Assembly: GCA_902799685.1 (NCBI GenBank)
Contig: CADCBO010000011.1
Span: forward strand, 1,524-65,523
Direction of reading: 5' to 3'
Length of the DNA stretch: 64,000 nucleotides
DNA from: an uncultured Bacteroidales bacterium
GTDB taxonomy: Bacteria; Bacteroidota; Bacteroidia; Bacteroidales; Bacteroidaceae
The notes beneath the pieces were generated by a model, which was given only the letters and a program-made list of their open reading frames with translations, did not search any database and was not told where the DNA came from. Each line of letters begins with the position of its first letter. Position 1 is the stretch's first letter. A program made the translations under genes and the position numbers. This document shows positions 45,322 to 54,244 of this stretch, piece after piece.

Positions 45322-46362
45322 TCAGAACTTGTAAAGCAGGCCTACCGAAAGAGGTACATCGGCATAAAGGTCATCCTTGTAGTTGAACACCCCCACTCCA
45401 AGACCCAGGTCAACGGCCAGATTCCTGGTCACGGATATGTCATAGCCCAGCTGACAGGTAAGGAAATTCTCCACATGAGTGCCGGTGTCAGGCTTGAAAT
45501 GGAATGACAGTGAGAATGCCCCCAGTTCCAGGCCTGCGCCCAGGCTCCATGTCAAACGCCTGTCAAATACATCAGGATGATTAAGGGATCCGGTGCAGTA
45601 TCCCAGGTCGCCCATGAGCGAGAATCCGCCGTAATTGCCGAACCGGTACTTGAACTGCATCACGTCACGCACATTGCCCGTCTGGAAGAAATACTGCACC
45701 TGAGGCGAAAAGGAGAAATACGGGAAACGGTCATCGGGCTCATCCCAATGGTCAATTACAGCCACAAGCATACCTGCTGATGCTACAGCCACCGCAGCGG
45801 CACCAATGAGCAGAGCTGTGTCATCCAGCTTGTCCAGATCCAGGTCCGGAGCCTTAGACTTATTGGTATTTGAATAACGGCTTGAGCTGGGGGTCCAGTC
45901 ATTATAGGTACGGTTATTGTAGTAACGTGCCCTGTGAATGGCATCAAACCAGAATATGTCATGATAGAAATCAAACAGGTCAACTAACAGCATGGCCAGT
46001 ACGGGGTCATCGGGATCAGTTGTACTGTATCTTTTGCCTTCGGCATCCAGAGTACTGTAAATAATATTATCTATCACCACCTCCTTGACTGGCTTTTCTA
46101 CAGGTATAGGGTCCAGGACCTGGGCAACGGTATCGGGCATGACCAGGTCATACATCACTGACTTGGTTTTGTCATTATATATGAAATGAAACTGAGCCGT
46201 AACCTGGGCAGGACAGTTCTTGTACATGGTCAGATAATCCTTGCCGTCCTGTGCGGTATGGACCTCACCCCAAACCATAATGTTTGTCTTCTCCTTTTTC
46301 TTACCGGATATTGATACAAAAGGCAACATTACTGCCAAAACCAGAAACAGATACTTTTTCAT
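45322..46362 (-). CDS. Uncharacterised secreted / outer-membrane protein with beta-barrel-like C-terminus
   Basis: Signal peptide MKKYLFLVLAVMLPFVSISG, internal hydrophobic stretch LLIGAAAVAVASAGMLVAVI, and a Gly/aromatic-rich C-terminal region ending ..GLLYKF. Start moved to the Met preceding the signal peptide. Confidence 0.55.
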   Translation of the reverse strand: MKKYLFLVLAVMLPFVSISGKKKEKTNIMVWGEVHTAQDGKDYLTMYKNCPAQVTAQFHFIYNDKTKSVMYDLVMPDTVAQVLDPIPVEKPVKEVVIDNIIYSTLDAEGKRYSTTDPDDPVLAMLLVDLFDFYHDIFWFDAIHRARYYNNRTYNDWTPSSSRYSNTNKSKAPDLDLDKLDDTALLIGAAAVAVASAGMLVAVIDHWDEPDDRFPYFSFSPQVQYFFQTGNVRDVMQFKYRFGNYGGFSLMGDLGYCTGSLNHPDVFDRRLTWSLGAGLELGAFSLSFHFKPDTGTHVENFLTCQLGYDISVTRNLAVDLGLGVGVFNYKDDLYADVPLSVGLLYKF

Positions 46363-46528
46363 AACGTTTGTGTCTAGAATTTGAATCCGGTGCGAAGATA
46401 AGCAGAAGATTTTACCCGCGAAGGGTAATTTCCCTAAAAGAACAGGGAAAAACCCTATCGTTACATGACAACAACACACGATAAGTTCAAAAGAGGTTTA
46501 TTATCACAGGCCTTAAAGAAAAAATATA

Positions 46529-46536
46529 TAACTTTG
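46529..46536 (+). promoter_or_regulatory. Candidate -7 box TAACTTTG for the seven-gene signalling operon
   Basis: Exact TAnnTTTG 43 nt upstream of the ATG at 46579. I found no other exact match inside the 46.6-54.2 kb run, by eye only. Confidence 0.35.
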
Positions 46537-46578
46537 TATCTTTAAGAAAAAAAATGAAAAAAAGTCAAAACCCTTGAC

Positions 46579-47517
46579 ATGAGAAAGACAATCATAATAA
46601 GTCTGTTCGCCTTGGCATCCCTCCTGGCGCAGGCACAGGAAAAATTCATTTTCACGCCTCAATGGACAGCACAGGCCCAGTTTGCAGGCTATTATGTTGC
46701 CCTTGAAAAAGGGTTTTACAAGGATGCCGGTCTGGATGTGGATATTGTGCATCCTTCCGTTACCCAGACTGCAATAAGCCGCATACGCAACAACGAAAGC
46801 CAGGCTACCACCCTACAGCTTGCACAAGCCATGGAGATAATAGATGACGGCATACCGCTTGTAAACATACTCCAGACATCGATGAACAATGCTATGGTCA
46901 TTGTGTCCCGCACGGGCAAGAACCCGCTCAAACAGATTGGTGAGAAAGTAGGAATCTGGAATGCAGGATTCGGACAGATAGCAATCTGCATGAGTCTTAA
47001 TGATCATCTGGATTACCGGTGGATTCCTTTTGCCAACAGCGTGAATCTTTTCATATCAGGAGCTATCGATGCAACCCTGGCAATGAGTTACAATGAATAC
47101 TACCAGTTATTACAGACAGGCATTGAACTCAGCGACGAGAGTGTCTATAGGTTCCGTAACCATGGTTACAACATTCAGGAGGATGGAGTCTATATGACCA
47201 GGGAATATTACGATGGGCACAAGGAGCAGGCCCGCAAGTTTGCCGATGCCAGCCGAAAAGGATGGGAATGGGCAGTTGAGAACCCTGAAGAGACTCTTGA
47301 GATTGTGATGGAATATGTACAGAAAGAGCATATATCCACAAACAGGGTTCTACAGAAACTTATGCTTGATGAGATCCTTGAACTGCTGGTGGACCGCGAA
47401 TCAAAGCGACGCGAGTACAGTCTTCGTCCCGACATGGTTGAGCAGGCCTCAGTTCTTATGTATGAGAACGGAATGATTGACCGTCAGATAACTTATGATG
47501 AACTTGTTGCCGAATAA
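46579..47517 (+). CDS. Orphan periplasmic substrate-binding protein, NMT1/THI5 (SsuA/TauA-like) type
   Basis: Signal peptide. N-terminal motif QWTAQAQFAGYYVALEKGFYKDAGLDV is typical of NMT1-like binding proteins. No ABC permease or ATPase is adjacent. Confidence 0.7.
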   Translation: MRKTIIISLFALASLLAQAQEKFIFTPQWTAQAQFAGYYVALEKGFYKDAGLDVDIVHPSVTQTAISRIRNNESQATTLQLAQAMEIIDDGIPLVNILQTSMNNAMVIVSRTGKNPLKQIGEKVGIWNAGFGQIAICMSLNDHLDYRWIPFANSVNLFISGAIDATLAMSYNEYYQLLQTGIELSDESVYRFRNHGYNIQEDGVYMTREYYDGHKEQARKFADASRKGWEWAVENPEETLEIVMEYVQKEHISTNRVLQKLMLDEILELLVDRESKRREYSLRPDMVEQASVLMYENGMIDRQITYDELVAE

Positions 47518-49891
47518 AACCTATGATGTCATGAAACAGGAGAAACAAAAATCACTAGCCACAAAGATAAGCCTGTGGATTGTATTGTTTGCAGGTCTTA
47601 TTTTCATTTCAGCCCTTGGTGTATTCTTCAATGAATCACGGTTGGCTGTACAGAAGGAAGCCATTGACCATGCCGATCAGGTCCTGGACAATACCGTCCA
47701 AAGGGTAGACAACATCATGGATGAGGTAAAAGTTGCCACCGACAATACCGACTGGCTGATAACAAGACACTTGAACGGACCTGATTCAATGTTTGTATAT
47801 AGCCGCCGGATACTCCAGAACAACCCTAACCTGAACGGATGTTCAATATCATTCGAGCCACACTACTTTGAGAGTAAAGGAATGTATTTTTCGGCCTATT
47901 CGTTCAATGACAACGGGAACATAATCACGACCCAGGAGGGCAACGACCACTATCAGTATTTTTACATGGACTGGTATCAGATGCCCAAGCTTCTGGACAG
48001 GCCATGTTGGACCGAGCCTTTCATGGATGTCAACCCGGATGACATTACATCGCCCGAGATGATTATTTCATATTGCAAGCCTATCAAGGATGACAACGGT
48101 CAGTTTATCGGCACAATATCAGTTGACCTGTCTCTGTCATGGTTGTCCAACACCATTGAGCAGGTCAAGCCCTATCCCAACTCATACAGTATCATGATTG
48201 GTAAAGGAGGTACATTCTATGTACACCCTGACACCACAAAACTATTCTATCAGACCATCTTTACCCAGACATTGCTTGAACCTGACACAGCCATAACAAG
48301 TCTTGGACACTCCATGCAAGCCGGAGAGGAAGGTGTACGTGAGATTAACGTGCATGGTGTGGATTGCTACGTGTTCTACAAACCTCTCACAGACACCGGT
48401 TGTAGCGTAGGTCTGGTTTGCCCGGTATCGGAAGTGTTCAGTGGTTATTACCGCCTTATCAATACTGTAATAGGAACTTTCATCGTAGGTCTGCTGCTTA
48501 TGCTTATGGTGTTCAGCAGCATCATCTCCAAACAGCTGGAGCCACTTGAGGAACTGGCGTATCAGGCCGAAGAGATTGCATCCGGTCACTTTGACGATGA
48601 ACTGCAGGAATCCGGGCATAACGACGAGATAGGACGCCTGAACAACTCATTCCGCAACATGCAGCAGTCTATCGTTAGGCAGATGGAGGAACTGAAACAG
48701 ACAAACGAGCAGAAAGGACGCATTGAGGGTGAACTCAAGATTGCCAGCGACATACAGATGTCCATGCTGCCTAAGATATTCCCACCTTTCCCGGAGCGTG
48801 ATGACATAGATGTGTTTGGCCAGCTCACACCGGCCAAGGAGGTAGGCGGAGACCTGTTTGACTTCTTTATACGTGACGAAAAACTGTTCTTCTGCATAGG
48901 CGATGTGTCCGGAAAGGGAGTCCCGGCTTCACTTTATATGGTTGTAACCAAAGCCCTGTTCAGAAATATATCGGCCCATGAGTCTTCGCCAGGCAGGATT
49001 ATCACCAGCCTGAACAATGTAATGGCTCAGGACAACGATTCAAACATGTTCGTGACCATGTTTGTGGGTGTACTGGATCTGCCTACAGGCCGTCTGCACT
49101 ACTGCAACGCCGGGCATGACGCACCTCTGCTGATAGGCAACATAGGAGCAGGTTTCCTGCCGGTAGATTCGAACCTGCCGGTTGGAGCCATGCCCGAATG
49201 GGATTTCAAGCAACAGGAGACACTTATAGACCCCGACACAAGCATTCTCCTATACACAGACGGATTGACTGAAGCTGAAAACATAAGCCATGACCAGTTC
49301 GGTATGGATCGCATAACAGACCTTGCTCACCGGCTTCAGAAGGAACGTACATTTATACCTACCGCCATAATCGGAGCCATGACAGAAGCTGTCCATGTCT
49401 TTGTGGGCGAAGCCGACCAGAGCGATGACCTTACGATGCTGGCCATTCAATATACCAAGCACCACCAGGACATAACTTTCCAACGCACACTTACTCTGAT
49501 TAACGACCTTAAGCGTGTACCCAGACTTAACACTTTCATTGATGAGGTTTGCGAAGCTGTAGGCTTTGACATGGCCACTACAATGCAGATAAATCTGGCT
49601 ATTGAGGAGGCTGTGGTAAATGTGATGAACTATGCATATCCGGCCGGAACCAAAGGTGACATAACCATAGAGGCAAAATCCAACGGCACTGAGGTAATGT
49701 TCGTGATAAGTGATACCGGTACGCCGTTTGACCCCACAGCCAAAGCCGAGGTTGACATAACGCTAAGTGCCGAGGACCGTTCCATAGGAGGTCTGGGAAT
49801 ACATCTGATACGTCAGATTATGGACCACATAAACTACGAACGCTCAGACGGACATAATGTTCTTACTCTTACAAAGCAGATCAACAAATGA
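47495..49891 (+). CDS. Sensor protein: TM / Cache-like periplasmic domain / TM / HAMP / PP2C (SpoIIE-RsbU) phosphatase / RsbW-SpoIIAB-type ATPase-kinase domain
   Basis: Two TM segments flank about 290 aa. HAMP is LEELAYQAEEIASGHFDDEL..EIGRLNNSFRNM. PP2C motifs are GDVSGKGVPASLYM, LYTDGLTEA and QSDDLTMLAI. C-terminal N/G boxes are EEAVVNVMNY, DTGTPFDP and GGLGIHLI. An alternative start exists at 47531 (MKQEKQ). Confidence 0.85.
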   Translation: MMNLLPNKTYDVMKQEKQKSLATKISLWIVLFAGLIFISALGVFFNESRLAVQKEAIDHADQVLDNTVQRVDNIMDEVKVATDNTDWLITRHLNGPDSMFVYSRRILQNNPNLNGCSISFEPHYFESKGMYFSAYSFNDNGNIITTQEGNDHYQYFYMDWYQMPKLLDRPCWTEPFMDVNPDDITSPEMIISYCKPIKDDNGQFIGTISVDLSLSWLSNTIEQVKPYPNSYSIMIGKGGTFYVHPDTTKLFYQTIFTQTLLEPDTAITSLGHSMQAGEEGVREINVHGVDCYVFYKPLTDTGCSVGLVCPVSEVFSGYYRLINTVIGTFIVGLLLMLMVFSSIISKQLEPLEELAYQAEEIASGHFDDELQESGHNDEIGRLNNSFRNMQQSIVRQMEELKQTNEQKGRIEGELKIASDIQMSMLPKIFPPFPERDDIDVFGQLTPAKEVGGDLFDFFIRDEKLFFCIGDVSGKGVPASLYMVVTKALFRNISAHESSPGRIITSLNNVMAQDNDSNMFVTMFVGVLDLPTGRLHYCNAGHDAPLLIGNIGAGFLPVDSNLPVGAMPEWDFKQQETLIDPDTSILLYTDGLTEAENISHDQFGMDRITDLAHRLQKERTFIPTAIIGAMTEAVHVFVGEADQSDDLTMLAIQYTKHHQDITFQRTLTLINDLKRVPRLNTFIDEVCEAVGFDMATTMQINLAIEEAVVNVMNYAYPAGTKGDITIEAKSNGTEVMFVISDTGTPFDPTAKAEVDITLSAEDRSIGGLGIHLIRQIMDHINYERSDGHNVLTLTKQINK

Positions 49892-51390
49892 TGATTCCTT
49901 TATCAATATTCAACATAGACCTTTCATCGGGCAACCTGATACTGTTTGTATCAATATTGATGTTCGTGGCCATACTGATGGCCAAGGTGGGAACCAAGTA
50001 CGGAGTTCCGACCATGCTGCTTTTCCTTATAATAGGCATGATTGCGGGCGAGGACGGAATAGGCATAAAGATAGACAATCTGAAAGTAGCCGAGTTCCTG
50101 GGGCACCTGGCCATGACAATAATCCTGCTCTCAGGAGGTTTGGAGACATCACTGGAGGAAACGCGTCCAATAATAAAGAAAGGTATTTCAATGTCAACCT
50201 TGGGCGTATTCATTACCATACTGGTTACAGGCTCATTCATATGGCTTGTTTTCGGCAACAGGATAGGCGGAGGTGGCAGGACGTTGATGGGTTGTTTCCT
50301 GCTGGCCACAGTATTGTCATCAACTGATTCGGCGTCAGTATTCTCAATACTGCGTAGCCGACGCCTTACATTGCGTGAGAACCTGGGCCCGTTGCTGGAG
50401 CTTGAGTCCGGCAGTAACGACCCCATGGCATACGTACTCACCATACTGCTTGTAGAGATAATGGGAACACTGGAGAACGTGACGGGTGCATCCGGCACAT
50501 GGCATGTCATATTTACCGGCGTATGGGTTCTGGTTAAACAAATCATCATTGGTTTCGGCGTTGGTATGGCATTGGGATACGGAGCACGCTGGTTACTTGT
50601 CAGGATTCAGCTGCATACCAGTCCACTTTACGCCATACTTATCCTAAGCATTGCATTGTTTGCCAATGGTGCGGCATCATATCTGGGAGGTAACGGATTG
50701 CTTGCACTCTATGTCTCTGCAATAGTCATAGGCAACACCAAAGACCTGCCCTTCAAGAAGGATGTCCTGCTCTTTTCGGACGGCATAACATGGCTTGCAC
50801 AGCTTATGATGTTCCTGCTTTTGGGACTGCTGGCCAGACCGTCACAGATGGGTGTCATAATATGGCCCGCACTGATTATAGGAGTGTTCATAATGCTTGT
50901 TGCCCGTCCTGCCGGTATTATATTGAGTCTGTTGCCGTTCAAGGGGCTTTCTTTCAGAGCCAAACTGCTTGCATCGTGGGTGGGGTTGAAAGGAGCCGGC
51001 CCTATCCTGTTTGCACTTTACACTGTACTGGAAGGTGTGGATGGCTCTAATGAAATCTTCAACATTGTGTTCACTATAACACTTATTTCATTGCTGGTAC
51101 AGGGTATGACTCTGTCACCTATGTCACATCTGCTCAATATGAGTATTGATGATGATCCCGAAGTAGAGACGTTCGGCATGGAGATTCCCGAAGAGATGGG
51201 AATGCTGCGCGACCACATAGTCAACGATGAGGACCTGACCAATGGTGACACTCTCAGGGACCTACATCTGCCACATGGAATACGCGTGGTTATGGTACGA
51301 CGCGACAACAGGTTTCTGGTGCCTCATGGAAGCATGAAACTTATGGCCGGCGACAGGCTTGTAATACTGATGGGAGATACGGATGACTAA
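49888..51390 (+). CDS. K+/H+ antiporter (CPA1/NhaP2-like) with C-terminal RCK_C (TrkA-C) domain
   Basis: About 12 TM segments with STDSASVFSIL and ESGSNDP motifs. Soluble tail is GDTLRDLHLPHGIRVVMVRRD..GDRLVILM. ATGA overlap with the upstream stop codon. Confidence 0.85.
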   Translation: MMIPLSIFNIDLSSGNLILFVSILMFVAILMAKVGTKYGVPTMLLFLIIGMIAGEDGIGIKIDNLKVAEFLGHLAMTIILLSGGLETSLEETRPIIKKGISMSTLGVFITILVTGSFIWLVFGNRIGGGGRTLMGCFLLATVLSSTDSASVFSILRSRRLTLRENLGPLLELESGSNDPMAYVLTILLVEIMGTLENVTGASGTWHVIFTGVWVLVKQIIIGFGVGMALGYGARWLLVRIQLHTSPLYAILILSIALFANGAASYLGGNGLLALYVSAIVIGNTKDLPFKKDVLLFSDGITWLAQLMMFLLLGLLARPSQMGVIIWPALIIGVFIMLVARPAGIILSLLPFKGLSFRAKLLASWVGLKGAGPILFALYTVLEGVDGSNEIFNIVFTITLISLLVQGMTLSPMSHLLNMSIDDDPEVETFGMEIPEEMGMLRDHIVNDEDLTNGDTLRDLHLPHGIRVVMVRRDNRFLVPHGSMKLMAGDRLVILMGDTDD

Positions 51391-51420
51391 AGATACATAT
51401 AAACTAAAACATAAACGATT

Positions 51421-51726
51421 ATGGAAGTAAAGATCAACACTCAGGATTCAGTGACGACCGCCCAGCTTATAGGCCGTCTGGACACCCCCGCATCACAGGA
51501 GATAAGCGGAGATTTTGACAATCTGATGCAGTATGCAGCCGGTACAGTCATACTTGACTGCACTGAACTTGAATACATCTCCAGTTCCGGACTGCGTCTG
51601 TTCCTATCCTTGCGCAAGGCCGCAGCCTCCAAAGGCGGAAAGGTCATTGTAAAGGCTATCAACAAAGACATACGTTCAGTGTTCATGATGACCGGTTTCC
51701 TGAACCTGTTCGAGATTCAGGACTGA
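51421..51726 (+). CDS. STAS-domain anti-sigma-factor antagonist-like protein (SpoIIAA/RsbV family)
   Basis: 101 aa. Conserved phosphorylatable-serine context LEYISSSGLRLF. Confidence 0.85.
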   Translation: MEVKINTQDSVTTAQLIGRLDTPASQEISGDFDNLMQYAAGTVILDCTELEYISSSGLRLFLSLRKAAASKGGKVIVKAINKDIRSVFMMTGFLNLFEIQD

Positions 51727-51772
51727 CACTCCGGCATTACCAACTGTTACTAACCTATAATCCAAATTCCCA

Positions 51773-52837
51773 ATGTCAGCACAAAGACATCTTGATCCGC
51801 ATTGTGAGGCTATACTTCAGGAATATCAGGACAATCTGCCCCGGTTCAGGGAAGTTGAGCAGGAGGTTAAGGAAAAGCTCAGACAGACATTGGCCGATGC
51901 CGGTCTGCTTGTTGCTGCTATTGAATCACGTGTAAAGGGGTATGATTCGCTTGCCGGTAAGCTGGAGTTGAAAGGTCACAAATACAACAGTCTGGCTGAC
52001 CTGACCGACATTCTGGGACTCAGAGTCATCACTTTCTACATTGACGATGTCGACAAGGTGGCATCGGCCGTTGAGAGACTCTTTGAGATTGACTGGGAGA
52101 ATACCGTCGACAAGCGCAAGATTCACGAGATAGACAGTTTCGGCTATCTGTCACTGCACTACATCTGTTCAGTGCCGGGTTTCCCCTACCGTTTTGAGAT
52201 ACAGATGCGTACCCTGTTGCAGCACGCATGGGCAAACATGGACCATGACACCGGTTACAAATCGGGCGTGGAGATACCCAAACGCTATATGCGCAACATG
52301 AGCCGTCTGGCCGGTATGCTGGAACTGGTGGATGACGAGTTCAGCAAGATACGCATAGAACTGACCGATTACCGTCGCCGTGTTCAGGCACTGGTTCGCT
52401 CTGGCAATCTGGATGAGGTGCCCATTGACGGAGACACTTTCCGCAGTTATCTGGAACTGAATCCGTTCAGCCAACTCAACAAGCGCATAGCCGCCATGAA
52501 CCAGGCCGAGATACAGGAGGTTCCGCTCATGCCCTATCTGGCCGTATTCAAGGGTGTCGGACTCAAGACTTTGGGTGATATATCAAATGTAATCAAGGAG
52601 TACTCGGAGGGAGCTTACCAGATAGCATGCTATCAGATAGGACTGACCGACCTGGATATAATATCATCGTCCATCGGCCCTCAGGATTTGTGCATTGCGT
52701 TCATACTCAAGAACGGAGGCGGCAAAGCCGGTATAAAGTATATGTTTGACCTTCTGAACGGAGAATCAGAGAGTAATGACCTGATTGCCGAGATGCTGCT
52801 TGAGCAGTCCAAGGACCTGCCTTTCATGAACAAATAA
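51773..52837 (+). CDS. RelA/SpoT-homologue synthetase-only protein (small alarmone synthetase-like) with unassigned C-terminal domain
   Basis: Synthetase motifs RVKGYDS, DILGLRVI, GYLSLHY, EIQMRTLLQHAW and HDTGYK are all intact. Residues from about 185 to 354 have no recognisable family. Confidence 0.8.
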   Translation: MSAQRHLDPHCEAILQEYQDNLPRFREVEQEVKEKLRQTLADAGLLVAAIESRVKGYDSLAGKLELKGHKYNSLADLTDILGLRVITFYIDDVDKVASAVERLFEIDWENTVDKRKIHEIDSFGYLSLHYICSVPGFPYRFEIQMRTLLQHAWANMDHDTGYKSGVEIPKRYMRNMSRLAGMLELVDDEFSKIRIELTDYRRRVQALVRSGNLDEVPIDGDTFRSYLELNPFSQLNKRIAAMNQAEIQEVPLMPYLAVFKGVGLKTLGDISNVIKEYSEGAYQIACYQIGLTDLDIISSSIGPQDLCIAFILKNGGGKAGIKYMFDLLNGESESNDLIAEMLLEQSKDLPFMNK

Positions 52838-52847
52838 ACCTTATATA

Positions 52848-53414
52848 ATGGCAAACAAACCGCTGGACACCACCCTGCTTGACCGCGCCATAATGTTTGC
52901 GGTCAAGGCCCACGCAGGCACCGAACGCAGGGGCAAAGGTTTTCCTTATATTGTACACCCCATGGAGGCGGTCGAGATTGTAGCGACCATAACACCTGAC
53001 CAGGAACTACTGGCTGCCGCCGCACTGCATGATACCGTCGAGGATACCGATGTCACTATTGACGATATCCGCCGGGAATTCGGTGACCGCATAGCGTCAC
53101 TAGTGCAGATTGAAAGTGTAAGTGATGATGAGGGCACATGGCATGAACGCAAGAAAAAGGCCATTGACCTGATTGCAAAAGCCCCGCTTGATGCCAAGAT
53201 TGTAGCCTTGGGCGACAAACTGTCCAACATGCGTGCCATTGCGCGTGACTATGCCGTACAAGGCGATGCCCTGTGGAACCTGTTCCACGCCAATGACTCC
53301 AAGGACCACGAATGGCATTACCGCGGATTGGCCGATGCCCTGCGTGACCTTAAGGATACGTTCGCGTTCCAGGAATTTGAGATGCTCATCAATCAGGTTT
53401 TCGGCAAGAAATAA
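52848..53414 (+). CDS. HD-domain (p)ppGpp-hydrolase-like protein (small alarmone hydrolase-like)
   Basis: SpoT/Mesh1-type motifs HAGTERRGKGFPYIVHP, AAALHDTVEDT and GDKLSNMRA. Length is 188 aa. Confidence 0.8.
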   Translation: MANKPLDTTLLDRAIMFAVKAHAGTERRGKGFPYIVHPMEAVEIVATITPDQELLAAAALHDTVEDTDVTIDDIRREFGDRIASLVQIESVSDDEGTWHERKKKAIDLIAKAPLDAKIVALGDKLSNMRAIARDYAVQGDALWNLFHANDSKDHEWHYRGLADALRDLKDTFAFQEFEMLINQVFGKK

Positions 53415-54244
53415 TGGATGCCATAAAGATTTCGCTTGATGACTACATACTGTTTGGCGGCGGTGCCAACGGTGAGAGTTATGACCATAAGACCGATCCC
53501 GACCTTATGCTCAAACTCTACATGCCCGGCAAGATCAGGCAACCTCTTGACGAGATGCTGATGGCCCGAAAAGTCTTTGACATGGGCATCCCCACCCCTG
53601 AGCCGGGTGATTATGTGGTGACCGAAGACGGCCGTTACGGAATCCGTTTCCGCCGCATCAAAGGAAAGAAATCATATTCACGTGCCACAGGCGATAATCC
53701 GGAACTCGTAGGCCAATACGCCGAGGAGTTTGCCCAAATGTGTCTCAAGCTCCACTCAGTCCATGTAGATACCACCCAGTTTGAGAGCGTAAAAGAACGT
53801 TATTACCGCCTGCTCACGGAGAACCCGTTCTTTACCACAGCCCAGAAAGACCGCATAGGCAAATTCATTGCCGATGCACCCGACACCGATACCGCCATTC
53901 ATGGTGACCTTCAGTACAGCAATGCCATCTTTGTGGGATCGGAACGTTATTTCATAGACCTGGGAGATTTCTGCTACGGATATAACCTTTTTGACATTGG
54001 AATGGTCTATCTGTGCTGTTGTCTCAGCCTGGAGAGTTTCATTCAGGAGACATTCCACATGCCCAAGTCACTTGCCATAAGGTTCTGGCAGGAGTTTGCA
54101 CCGGCATATTATGGTGCAGACCGCCCGCTGAAAGACATTGAAGAAGAGATTCGTCCATATGCCGGGCTCAAGACACTTATAGTGGAACGCGACACAAAAC
54201 GCCCTATGCCGGAACTGCGCGAAGCACTTTCATCATTGTTGTAA
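53414..54244 (+). CDS. Aminoglycoside/choline-kinase-fold phosphotransferase-family protein
   Basis: Catalytic-loop HGDLQYSNAIF and metal-binding IDLGDF. 276 aa. TAATG overlap with the HD gene. Confidence 0.65.
   Translation: MDAIKISLDDYILFGGGANGESYDHKTDPDLMLKLYMPGKIRQPLDEMLMARKVFDMGIPTPEPGDYVVTEDGRYGIRFRRIKGKKSYSRATGDNPELVGQYAEEFAQMCLKLHSVHVDTTQFESVKERYYRLLTENPFFTTAQKDRIGKFIADAPDTDTAIHGDLQYSNAIFVGSERYFIDLGDFCYGYNLFDIGMVYLCCCLSLESFIQETFHMPKSLAIRFWQEFAPAYYGADRPLKDIEEEIRPYAGLKTLIVERDTKRPMPELREALSSLL

Follow-up and report, generated by a model that had tools for sequence, protein, structure and literature searches.

In a stretch of 64,000 nucleotides (nt) from an uncultured Bacteroidales bacterium (contig CADCBO010000011.1; the whole stretch is referred to as the window, and coordinates of the locus are given in its numbering), seven genes follow each other closely on the + strand, and the core of this locus is probably a partner-switching module that lacks a sigma factor and has a dedicated alarmone synthetase/hydrolase pair as its output. 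The gene content, the domains, the intact catalytic and phospho-acceptor residues, the linkage across phyla, the fusions and the clade specificity behind this reading are direct observations. The seven open reading frames (ORFs) lie in the ORF listing where an earlier note on this DNA had placed them, and the domains and junctions that it gave (from gene 1 to gene 7: -23 (or +13), -4, +30, +46, +10 and -1 nt) hold up against that list and against the Pfam and NCBIfam models with which domains were assigned (lengths in amino acids, aa; TM, transmembrane segment):

46579..47517, + strand: gene 1, NMT1/THI5-type solute-binding protein (312 aa; Pfam NMT1, 103 bits)
47531..49891, + strand: gene 2, membrane sensor, TM-dCache-TM-HAMP-PP2C-RsbW-type serine kinase (786 aa)
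49888..51390, + strand: gene 3, NhaP2-type CPA1 K+/H+ antiporter with a C-terminal RCK_C (TrkA_C) domain (500 aa)
51421..51726, + strand: gene 4, single-domain STAS protein (101 aa; STAS, 60 bits; TIGR00377, 63.7 against a cutoff of 53.45)
51773..52837, + strand: gene 5, small alarmone synthetase (354 aa; RelA_SpoT PF04607, 68 bits; no HD domain)
52848..53414, + strand: gene 6, small alarmone hydrolase (188 aa; HD_4 PF13328, 68 bits; no synthetase domain)
53414..54244, + strand: gene 7, APH-fold kinase (276 aa; APH, 41 bits; TIGR02172, 225.8 bits, just below the cutoff of 228.2)

The evidence that carries this reading is the linkage of the synthetase gene to the switch genes in other genomes. 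A first homologue search returned only matches of at least 90% identity, and conservation was then judged by a search of representatives and a profile-driven genome scan. The synthetase family counts 909 cluster representatives (E < 1e-30) of 350-380 aa, with the whole architecture in common; 32 representatives were aligned and one genome per species was scanned, which gave 80 loci with a synthetase 39-71% identical to that of the window. These loci belong to Bacteroidales (Paludibacteraceae, Prevotella and others), Lachnospiraceae, Christensenellaceae, other Clostridia, Acholeplasmatales, Bacilli, one melainabacterium and one actinobacterium. Every locus was annotated at the domain level with hidden Markov models, and the following counts refer to genes within 5 kb of the synthetase:

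STAS: 64 of 80 loci
RsbW-type kinase: 57 of 80 loci
PP2C phosphatase: 51 of 80 loci
STAS, kinase and PP2C together: 49 of 80 loci
HD hydrolase: 57 of 80 loci
APH-fold kinase: 39 of 80 loci
CPA1 antiporter: 3 of 80 loci

STAS is present in 44 of the 54 loci with complete 5-kb flanks and in 12 of 18 Firmicutes loci, and at 48 loci it lies directly next to the synthetase on the same strand, the reading frames often overlapping. Since the outer flanking genes of the window (lysC, lysA, FtsX, GH2) are never conserved at the other loci, the linkage is not leftover synteny of close relatives. The gene order varies as well: PP2C-kinase, STAS, synthetase, APH, HD; synthetase, HD, APH, PP2C-kinase, STAS; kinase, STAS, synthetase; STAS, synthetase, kinase; or synthetase, HD, STAS, PP2C-kinase. 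In independent Pfam-annotated neighbourhoods the module recurs, again in differing orders, in four of five more distant Clostridia relatives, three of which have SpoIIE and HATPase_c_2 fused in one gene. The sensor part differs between loci (dCache with or without HAMP, 5TM-5TMR_LYT, QueT-like, or none), whereas PP2C, kinase and STAS are constant, which is the usual signature of one output with interchangeable inputs. As a negative control, loci of at least 6 kb each were drawn from metagenomes for a divergent, mostly environmental branch of the synthetase family, and here STAS was found at 1 of 33 loci and kinase, PP2C and HD at none (0/33). The linkage is therefore specific to the gut/rumen clade that includes the window protein, and not a property of the whole family, and the control also bears out the method.

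The gene-neighbourhood comparison, which the earlier note had put forward as a check, thus bears out the co-occurrence of STAS, kinase and PP2C with the synthetase over two phyla, but it does not bear out the seven genes as one conserved unit. Besides the scarce antiporter, NMT1 is found within 5 kb of the synthetase at none of the 80 loci; L056 alone has an NMT1 gene, ~ 5 kb off, and there it pairs with a homologous sensor and not with the synthetase. Because the counts are high for the phospho-switch and the synthetase/hydrolase pair and low for the antiporter and NMT1, it is the former that form the conserved unit. Of the two outputs originally proposed, the alarmone synthetase is accordingly the most likely one (the switch travels with the synthetase clade), while the antiporter, for which the count is 3 of 80 loci, does not stand as a conserved output.

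Gene 2 (for which an alternative start at 47495 would give 798 aa) matches the Pfam families dCache_1/MCP-like_PDC_1, HAMP, SpoIIE PP2C (PF07228, 157 bits) and HATPase_c_2 (PF13581, 93 bits), with approximate domain limits of 47681-48400 (Cache), 48533-48676 (HAMP), 48875-49453 (PP2C) and 49502-49876 (kinase). Two hydrophobic segments, read from the sequence, flank the Cache domain, from which it follows that the sensor domain faces outward. Conservation reaches at least 95% for the metal-binding motifs of PP2C (GGD, GDVSGKG, TDG..E and DD) among 53 linked homologues and for the N, G1 and G2 boxes of the kinase among 60; the RsbW and SpoIIAB models of NCBIfam match this kinase domain, below their cutoffs. 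In the STAS protein, the counterpart of the phosphorylated Ser58 of SpoIIAA is Ser55 (codon 51583-51585; alignment to 1TH8/1TID), and Ser54 and Ser55 are each at least 95% conserved among 73 linked STAS sequences. Judged by its domains and motifs, the locus possesses all three partner-switching components, i.e. a PP2C phosphatase, an RsbW-type kinase with its boxes and a STAS protein with a phosphorylatable serine. What it lacks is the cognate sigma factor as the sequestered target: no sigma-factor domain occurs in the seven genes or their immediate flanks, and no sigma factor gene is found among the genes called in L001 and L084-L088. Domain calls and neighbourhood checks thus agree with the earlier description of the triad as being without a sigma factor in its cluster.

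In gene 5, the synthetase motifs RVK, GY.SLH and E.Q.R are invariant, and in its structural model (predicted local distance difference test, pLDDT, of 93) the catalytic half (~ aa 1-210) is RelQ/RelP-like (Foldseek template modelling score 0.78-0.84, E ~ 1e-9). With 354 aa and an extra domain it is not the single-domain protein of ~ 200-250 aa by which RelQ/RelP-like synthetases are defined, and the YjbM equivalog model reaches 56 bits against a cutoff of 320. The C-terminal domain (~ aa 210-354; nt ~ 52400-52834) is helical, was modelled separately at a pLDDT of 96.7 and has no significant match in PDB or BFVD (predicted viral structures); the module also defines a new structural domain on an alarmone synthetase. 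Its length, first put at ~ 170 aa, is corrected to ~ 145 aa, as the RelQ-like fold extends to about residue 210. In total 21 positions are conserved among the switch-linked synthetases but vary in the unlinked branch, roughly half of them in the C-terminal domain (e.g. D293, D295, I296), and this conservation pattern makes them candidates for a docking surface. R201, R202, Y226 and Y255 are also among these clade-specific residues. Mimicry of a sigma domain by the C-terminal domain was also considered, for which Foldseek gave no support.

Gene 6 contains the hydrolase residues HD..ED..D..N, of which HD..ED is kept at 95% or more in linked homologues, and its nearest solved structures are the small alarmone hydrolase (SAH) Lmo0812 (the best, 1e-22), Mesh1 and the hydrolase domains of Rel. 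Among the solved relatives of gene 6, the (p)ppApp-specific Aph1 (determinants from PMC10083569) ranks last, for which reason an Aph1-like (p)ppApp hydrolase was rejected, which is not decisive for the substrate. Since the synthetase fold is RelQ/RelP-like and the neighbouring hydrolase is nearest to SAHs that hydrolyse (p)ppGpp, the likeliest product of gene 5 would be (p)ppGpp.

A synthetase-only gene adjoining a hydrolase-only gene is also the arrangement of FaRel/ATfaRel (PMC7229694), so that genes 5 and 6 might be a type IV toxin-antitoxin or anti-phage pair of that kind, with signalling neighbours that are either incidental or gate a suicide response. The only match in the defence library, to the PADLOC candidate system PDC-S33, points the same way, but it is weak (55 bits) and covers the catalytic domain only. 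The size of 354 aa and the extra C-terminal domain are superficially CapRel-like as well, yet the fold of gene 5 is much nearer to the housekeeping RelQ/RelP (E 3e-9) than to CapRel, a tRNA-modifying toxin (E 1e-6, with a root-mean-square deviation of 22 Å), and the C-terminal domain matches neither CapRel nor any PDB or viral structure; a CapRel-like fused toxin-antitoxin was therefore ruled out on fold. Moreover, the 134 matching records in phage and plasmid collections include none at 80% coverage, the full-length architecture not being found there, the flanks of the run are housekeeping genes with no integrase among them, and the two genes do not constitute a two-gene unit on a phage, prophage or other variable region, as toxic small alarmone synthetases do. 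The hydrolase is not beside the synthetase in 23 of the 80 loci (including most Prevotella loci), and the tightest partner of the synthetase is STAS and not the hydrolase. Altogether, a toxin-antitoxin or anti-phage role appears very improbable. Gene 5 is like RelQ/RelP in its catalytic fold and motifs, and its HD-only neighbour recalls FaRel/ATfaRel, while it differs from all of these in the extra 145-aa helical domain, in the linkage to a phospho-switch and in being a chromosomal family.

The motifs HGD..N and DxGD of gene 7 are conserved (HGD..N at 95% or more), and no sequence relative is detectable in PDB. Single proteins in which HD and APH appear joined occur in seven loci (L038, L040, L045, L049, L052, L053 and L058, e.g. 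L040:11073-12512), in two of which the fusion is confirmed by Pfam, and in many more loci the HD and APH genes are adjacent. Fusion and adjacency thus tie the APH-fold kinase to alarmone turnover and, judged by gene arrangement, gene 7 belongs to the alarmone branch in Bacteroidales.

Other fusions concern the switch. The kinase is usually fused to the phosphatase, whereas it is fused to the synthetase in three representatives (P0122, P0271 and P0272; 521 aa, 81-82% mutual identity, on separate contigs). In these the synthetase is full-length, and the kinase domain is 54% identical to that of the window with all ATP-binding boxes intact. Kinase and STAS share one reading frame in L066, and one representative (P0166) is a synthetase-HD fusion. 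No STAS-synthetase fusion was found among 150 representatives or in two further listings. The kinase-synthetase fusion genes (L082:8001-9566 and L083:2282-3847) adjoin transporter genes.

In the mechanism proposed here, the Cache domain of gene 2 would sense a periplasmic ligand (the NMT1 protein probably assisting in this lineage), and the ligand would tip the balance between the phosphatase and kinase activities of gene 2, by which the phosphorylation state of Ser55 of STAS would be set. The state of STAS would in turn switch the RelQ-like synthetase on or off, either by direct binding, probably to the C-terminal domain (as SiaC does on SiaD), or by pulling the kinase domain off the enzyme (the way in which RsbV releases SigB from RsbW). 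The HD hydrolase would then reset the signal, most likely (p)ppGpp, and the APH-fold kinase would act somewhere in the same nucleotide branch.

Several known systems have part of this design. SiaABCD of Pseudomonas aeruginosa consists of a PP2C phosphatase (SiaA), a kinase (SiaB), a STAS-like protein (SiaC) and a diguanylate cyclase (SiaD). There, as proposed here, phosphatase and kinase together determine whether a small antagonist is phosphorylated, and the antagonist in turn controls a synthetase of a nucleotide second messenger instead of a sigma factor (PMC8457831); the order phosphatase-kinase-antagonist-synthetase is paralleled in most Bacteroidales loci. The output, however, is a RelA/SpoT-type pyrophosphokinase with its own hydrolase and not a GGDEF cyclase (there is no GGDEF gene), the kinase is fused to the phosphatase and there is a periplasmic Cache sensor; in agreement, the SiaA model NF038263 matches gene 2 at the domain level only (74 bits against a cutoff of 700), so that gene 2 is not an orthologue. 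With the RsbU/RsbV/RsbW-SigB and SpoIIE/SpoIIAA/SpoIIAB-SigF switches the module has the same three families in common, including the phospho-serine, the kinase boxes and the PP2C motifs, but it has no sigma factor and its kinase is fused to a membrane phosphatase. If the classical topology of these switches holds, the synthetase stands where the sigma factor would be. A kinase and a PP2C on one polypeptide, a single-domain STAS target and a non-sigma output are also found in SypE/SypA of Vibrio fischeri (PMC10120452). The output of SypE/SypA is biofilm polysaccharide and not a nucleotide. SypE is moreover cytoplasmic, has a central receiver domain and a domain order opposite to that of gene 2.

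Direct binding of STAS to the synthetase, for which the chances seem about even, is preferred over the classical topology in which the kinase holds the synthetase, a possible arrangement of clearly lower probability. Direct binding is favoured because STAS is the tightest and most persistent neighbour of the synthetase, because some loci retain STAS and synthetase without a nearby kinase, and because the common gene order parallels siaABCD, whereas the existence of the kinase-synthetase fusion favours the classical topology.

A number of points weigh against a switch with the alarmone pair as its output. At eight of the 54 full-flank loci the synthetase, whether or not HD accompanies it, has no switch genes near it, and neither STAS nor PP2C lies within 8 kb of the kinase-synthetase fusions, which therefore do not demonstrate a complete variant module. 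The C-terminal domain of the synthetase is also present in family members without a linked switch and can thus not serve solely as a docking site for STAS. The loci are nearly all from uncultured gut or rumen genomes, and if whole cassettes have moved horizontally, fewer of the observations may be independent than it would seem. As to the product, (p)ppApp or another molecule is also conceivable. More generally, the contacts between the proteins, the direction of control and the nucleotide made are all deduced from the genes, as is co-transcription, a single transcript being plausible because of the gene spacing alone.

It could even be that the genes are neighbours without any functional coupling, with the switch controlling a sigma factor or another target encoded elsewhere and the alarmone genes riding on a cassette that has spread horizontally among gut anaerobes. 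In fact, the Firmicutes synthetases are 48-52% identical to that of the window, about equal to many Bacteroidales ones, which suggests horizontal spread, and the switch is missing at some loci. Hitch-hiking would nevertheless leave unexplained the retention of the linkage through rearrangements, the exchange of sensors, the kinase-synthetase fusion and the tight, often overlapping STAS-synthetase junction; nor does the cluster of the window, or any gene called in the neighbourhoods named above, offer a sigma factor as target. Mere proximity is therefore a very improbable explanation.

Gene 3 contains Na_H_Exchanger and TrkA_C (38 bits) and exceeds the cutoff of the equivalog model NF003716 (487 against 355 bits). 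It is a lineage-specific insertion between the sensor and STAS genes. In ~ 10 Bacteroidales loci, RCK_C transporters of three unrelated families (the NhaP2-type exchanger, a Kef-like exchanger with two RCK_C and a CitMHS-type carrier with two RCK_C) directly abut the module or lie inside it, those of L035 and L056 in the same slot as gene 3, between the kinase and STAS genes:

L004:14996-16483, RCK_C transporter
L009:14746-16545, RCK_C transporter
L016:5964-7475, RCK_C transporter
L035:7536-9341, RCK_C transporter
L036:9737-11983, RCK_C transporter
L045:5310-9155, RCK_C transporter
L049:3731-5347, RCK_C transporter
L056:7301-9100, RCK_C transporter
L066:13675-15912, RCK_C transporter
window 49888-51390, RCK_C transporter (gene 3)

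Going by the domain assignments, the element common to these transporters is the RCK_C domain and not a transport activity. RCK_C domains are established receptors of a nucleotide messenger (cyclic di-AMP, c-di-AMP) in K+ transporters. In Bacillus subtilis, a protein partner (DarB, acting on Rel) couples K+/c-di-AMP signalling to (p)ppGpp synthesis (PMC9293649), although the proteins are unrelated to those of the module (a CBS-domain receptor on a long Rel enzyme) and the link here is genomic only. Because of the receptor function of RCK_C and this coupling of K+ to (p)ppGpp, it may be speculated that the nucleotide acts on the transporter or that the transporter is a co-sensor. The K+/H+ antiporter of the window is a lineage-specific add-on, which could be sensing along or be addressed via its RCK_C tail.

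The roles could also be reversed, with the transporter as the real output, on whose RCK_C tail STAS or the kinase acts, and the alarmone genes as a parallel or secondary branch. Gene 3 does stand between the sensor and STAS genes, overlapping the former by 4 nt, and nine other loci have RCK_C transporters of the three families abutting the module (9 versus ~ 2.3 expected). This enrichment is suggestive, but it is modest (Poisson 7e-4, binomial 0.012) and calculated with relatedness ignored. CPA1 in 3 of 80 loci, or any RCK_C transporter in ~ 10 of 80, compares poorly with STAS in 64 of 80, the Firmicutes loci have no RCK_C transporter at all, and the nucleotide-receptor role of RCK_C is no less compatible with a transporter addressed by the nucleotide than with one addressed by STAS. 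A transporter as the actual output is thus highly unlikely. A further variant, which is speculative and rather doubtful, combines the classical topology with the transporters: the synthetase would sit in the place of sigma, the kinase would be an ‘anti-synthetase’ until dephosphorylated STAS displaces it, and the alarmone would then gate the RCK_C ion transporters of the cluster. If true, this would be a self-contained path from extracellular ligand via an alarmone pulse to K+/H+ flux, apart from the ribosome-linked stringent response.

All parts of the switch with its synthetase/hydrolase output are of known kinds, and it is the wiring that appears new. Literature searches, including the classification of RelA/SpoT homologues, a STAS review and the work on Aph1, returned no account of an alarmone synthetase controlled by STAS or by a partner switch, in accordance with the remark in the earlier note that no characterised system is wired this way, albeit within incomplete coverage, so that a prior description is possible. 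Control of small alarmone synthetases is mainly transcriptional, or exerted by allosteric nucleotides or RNA, and many bacteria, including Bacteroidota, have STAS, RsbW and PP2C genes without a sigma factor to control. The module is a concrete candidate answer to both, i.e. a small alarmone synthetase switched by a phosphorylation relay that reads the surroundings, and a role for sigma-less STAS/RsbW/PP2C genes. Among gut and rumen anaerobes, in which alarmone signalling influences persistence in the host, dozens of species have the module and, if the proposal is true, outside signals would control stress alarmones via a new route.

The remaining features of the locus are local. Gene 1 has an N-terminal signal peptide, read from the sequence, and is secreted; it is a local accessory outside the conserved core and probably a co-sensor for gene 2. 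The same seven genes were found by an independent gene caller on a public 149-kb metagenome scaffold that contains the identical sequence, with 47531 as the start of gene 2. Two promoter-like boxes are present:

46529..46536, + strand: TAACTTTG, matching the Bacteroidetes -7 consensus TAnnTTTG, 43 nt before gene 1
52741..52748, + strand: TATGTTTG, second TAnnTTTG match, inside the 3' end of gene 5, ~ 100 nt before gene 6

The first box is present exactly as claimed before, but since the motif is frequent in the window (44 observed versus 33 ± 5 expected) it is weak evidence of a promoter, and no -33 TTTG was seen where it was looked for, ~ 20 nt upstream of 46529. From its position, the internal box could be a candidate promoter for genes 6-7, uncoupling the expression of hydrolase and kinase from the rest. 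Terminator-like sites occur at the rate of shuffled sequence (11 versus 8.4 ± 3.0 in the 45-56 kb region, both strands). None lies in an intergenic gap of the run, those on the + strand within it all being in coding sequence. No riboswitch or other known RNA family was found in the region. Upstream of the run lies a divergent ORF on the - strand (45322-46479; 385 aa in the ORF listing, 346 aa according to the public gene caller), which has no Pfam family and is not conserved beside the module at other loci.

Some loci of the survey have additional genes. Two STAS genes accompany the synthetase at L035:9308-9991, L056:9231-9977, L071, L077, L078 and L081, in tandem upstream of it or one on each side, which hints at branched or competing antagonists. 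In L052, one reading frame (L052:12416-13786) joins a diacylglycerol/NAD-kinase-like domain (DAGK_cat, YegS_C) to an RsbW-type kinase domain. A gene of the Y_phosphatase3 tyrosine-phosphatase family lies directly upstream of the synthetase at L045:9140-9970 and L049:5420-6250 (related Bacteroidales), between antiporter and synthetase. In Clostridia, a protein of 318-319 aa without a Pfam match is encoded directly upstream of the synthetase (L084:5029-5985 and L086:3002-3961; 67% mutual identity), and it may be a further component of the module in that lineage.

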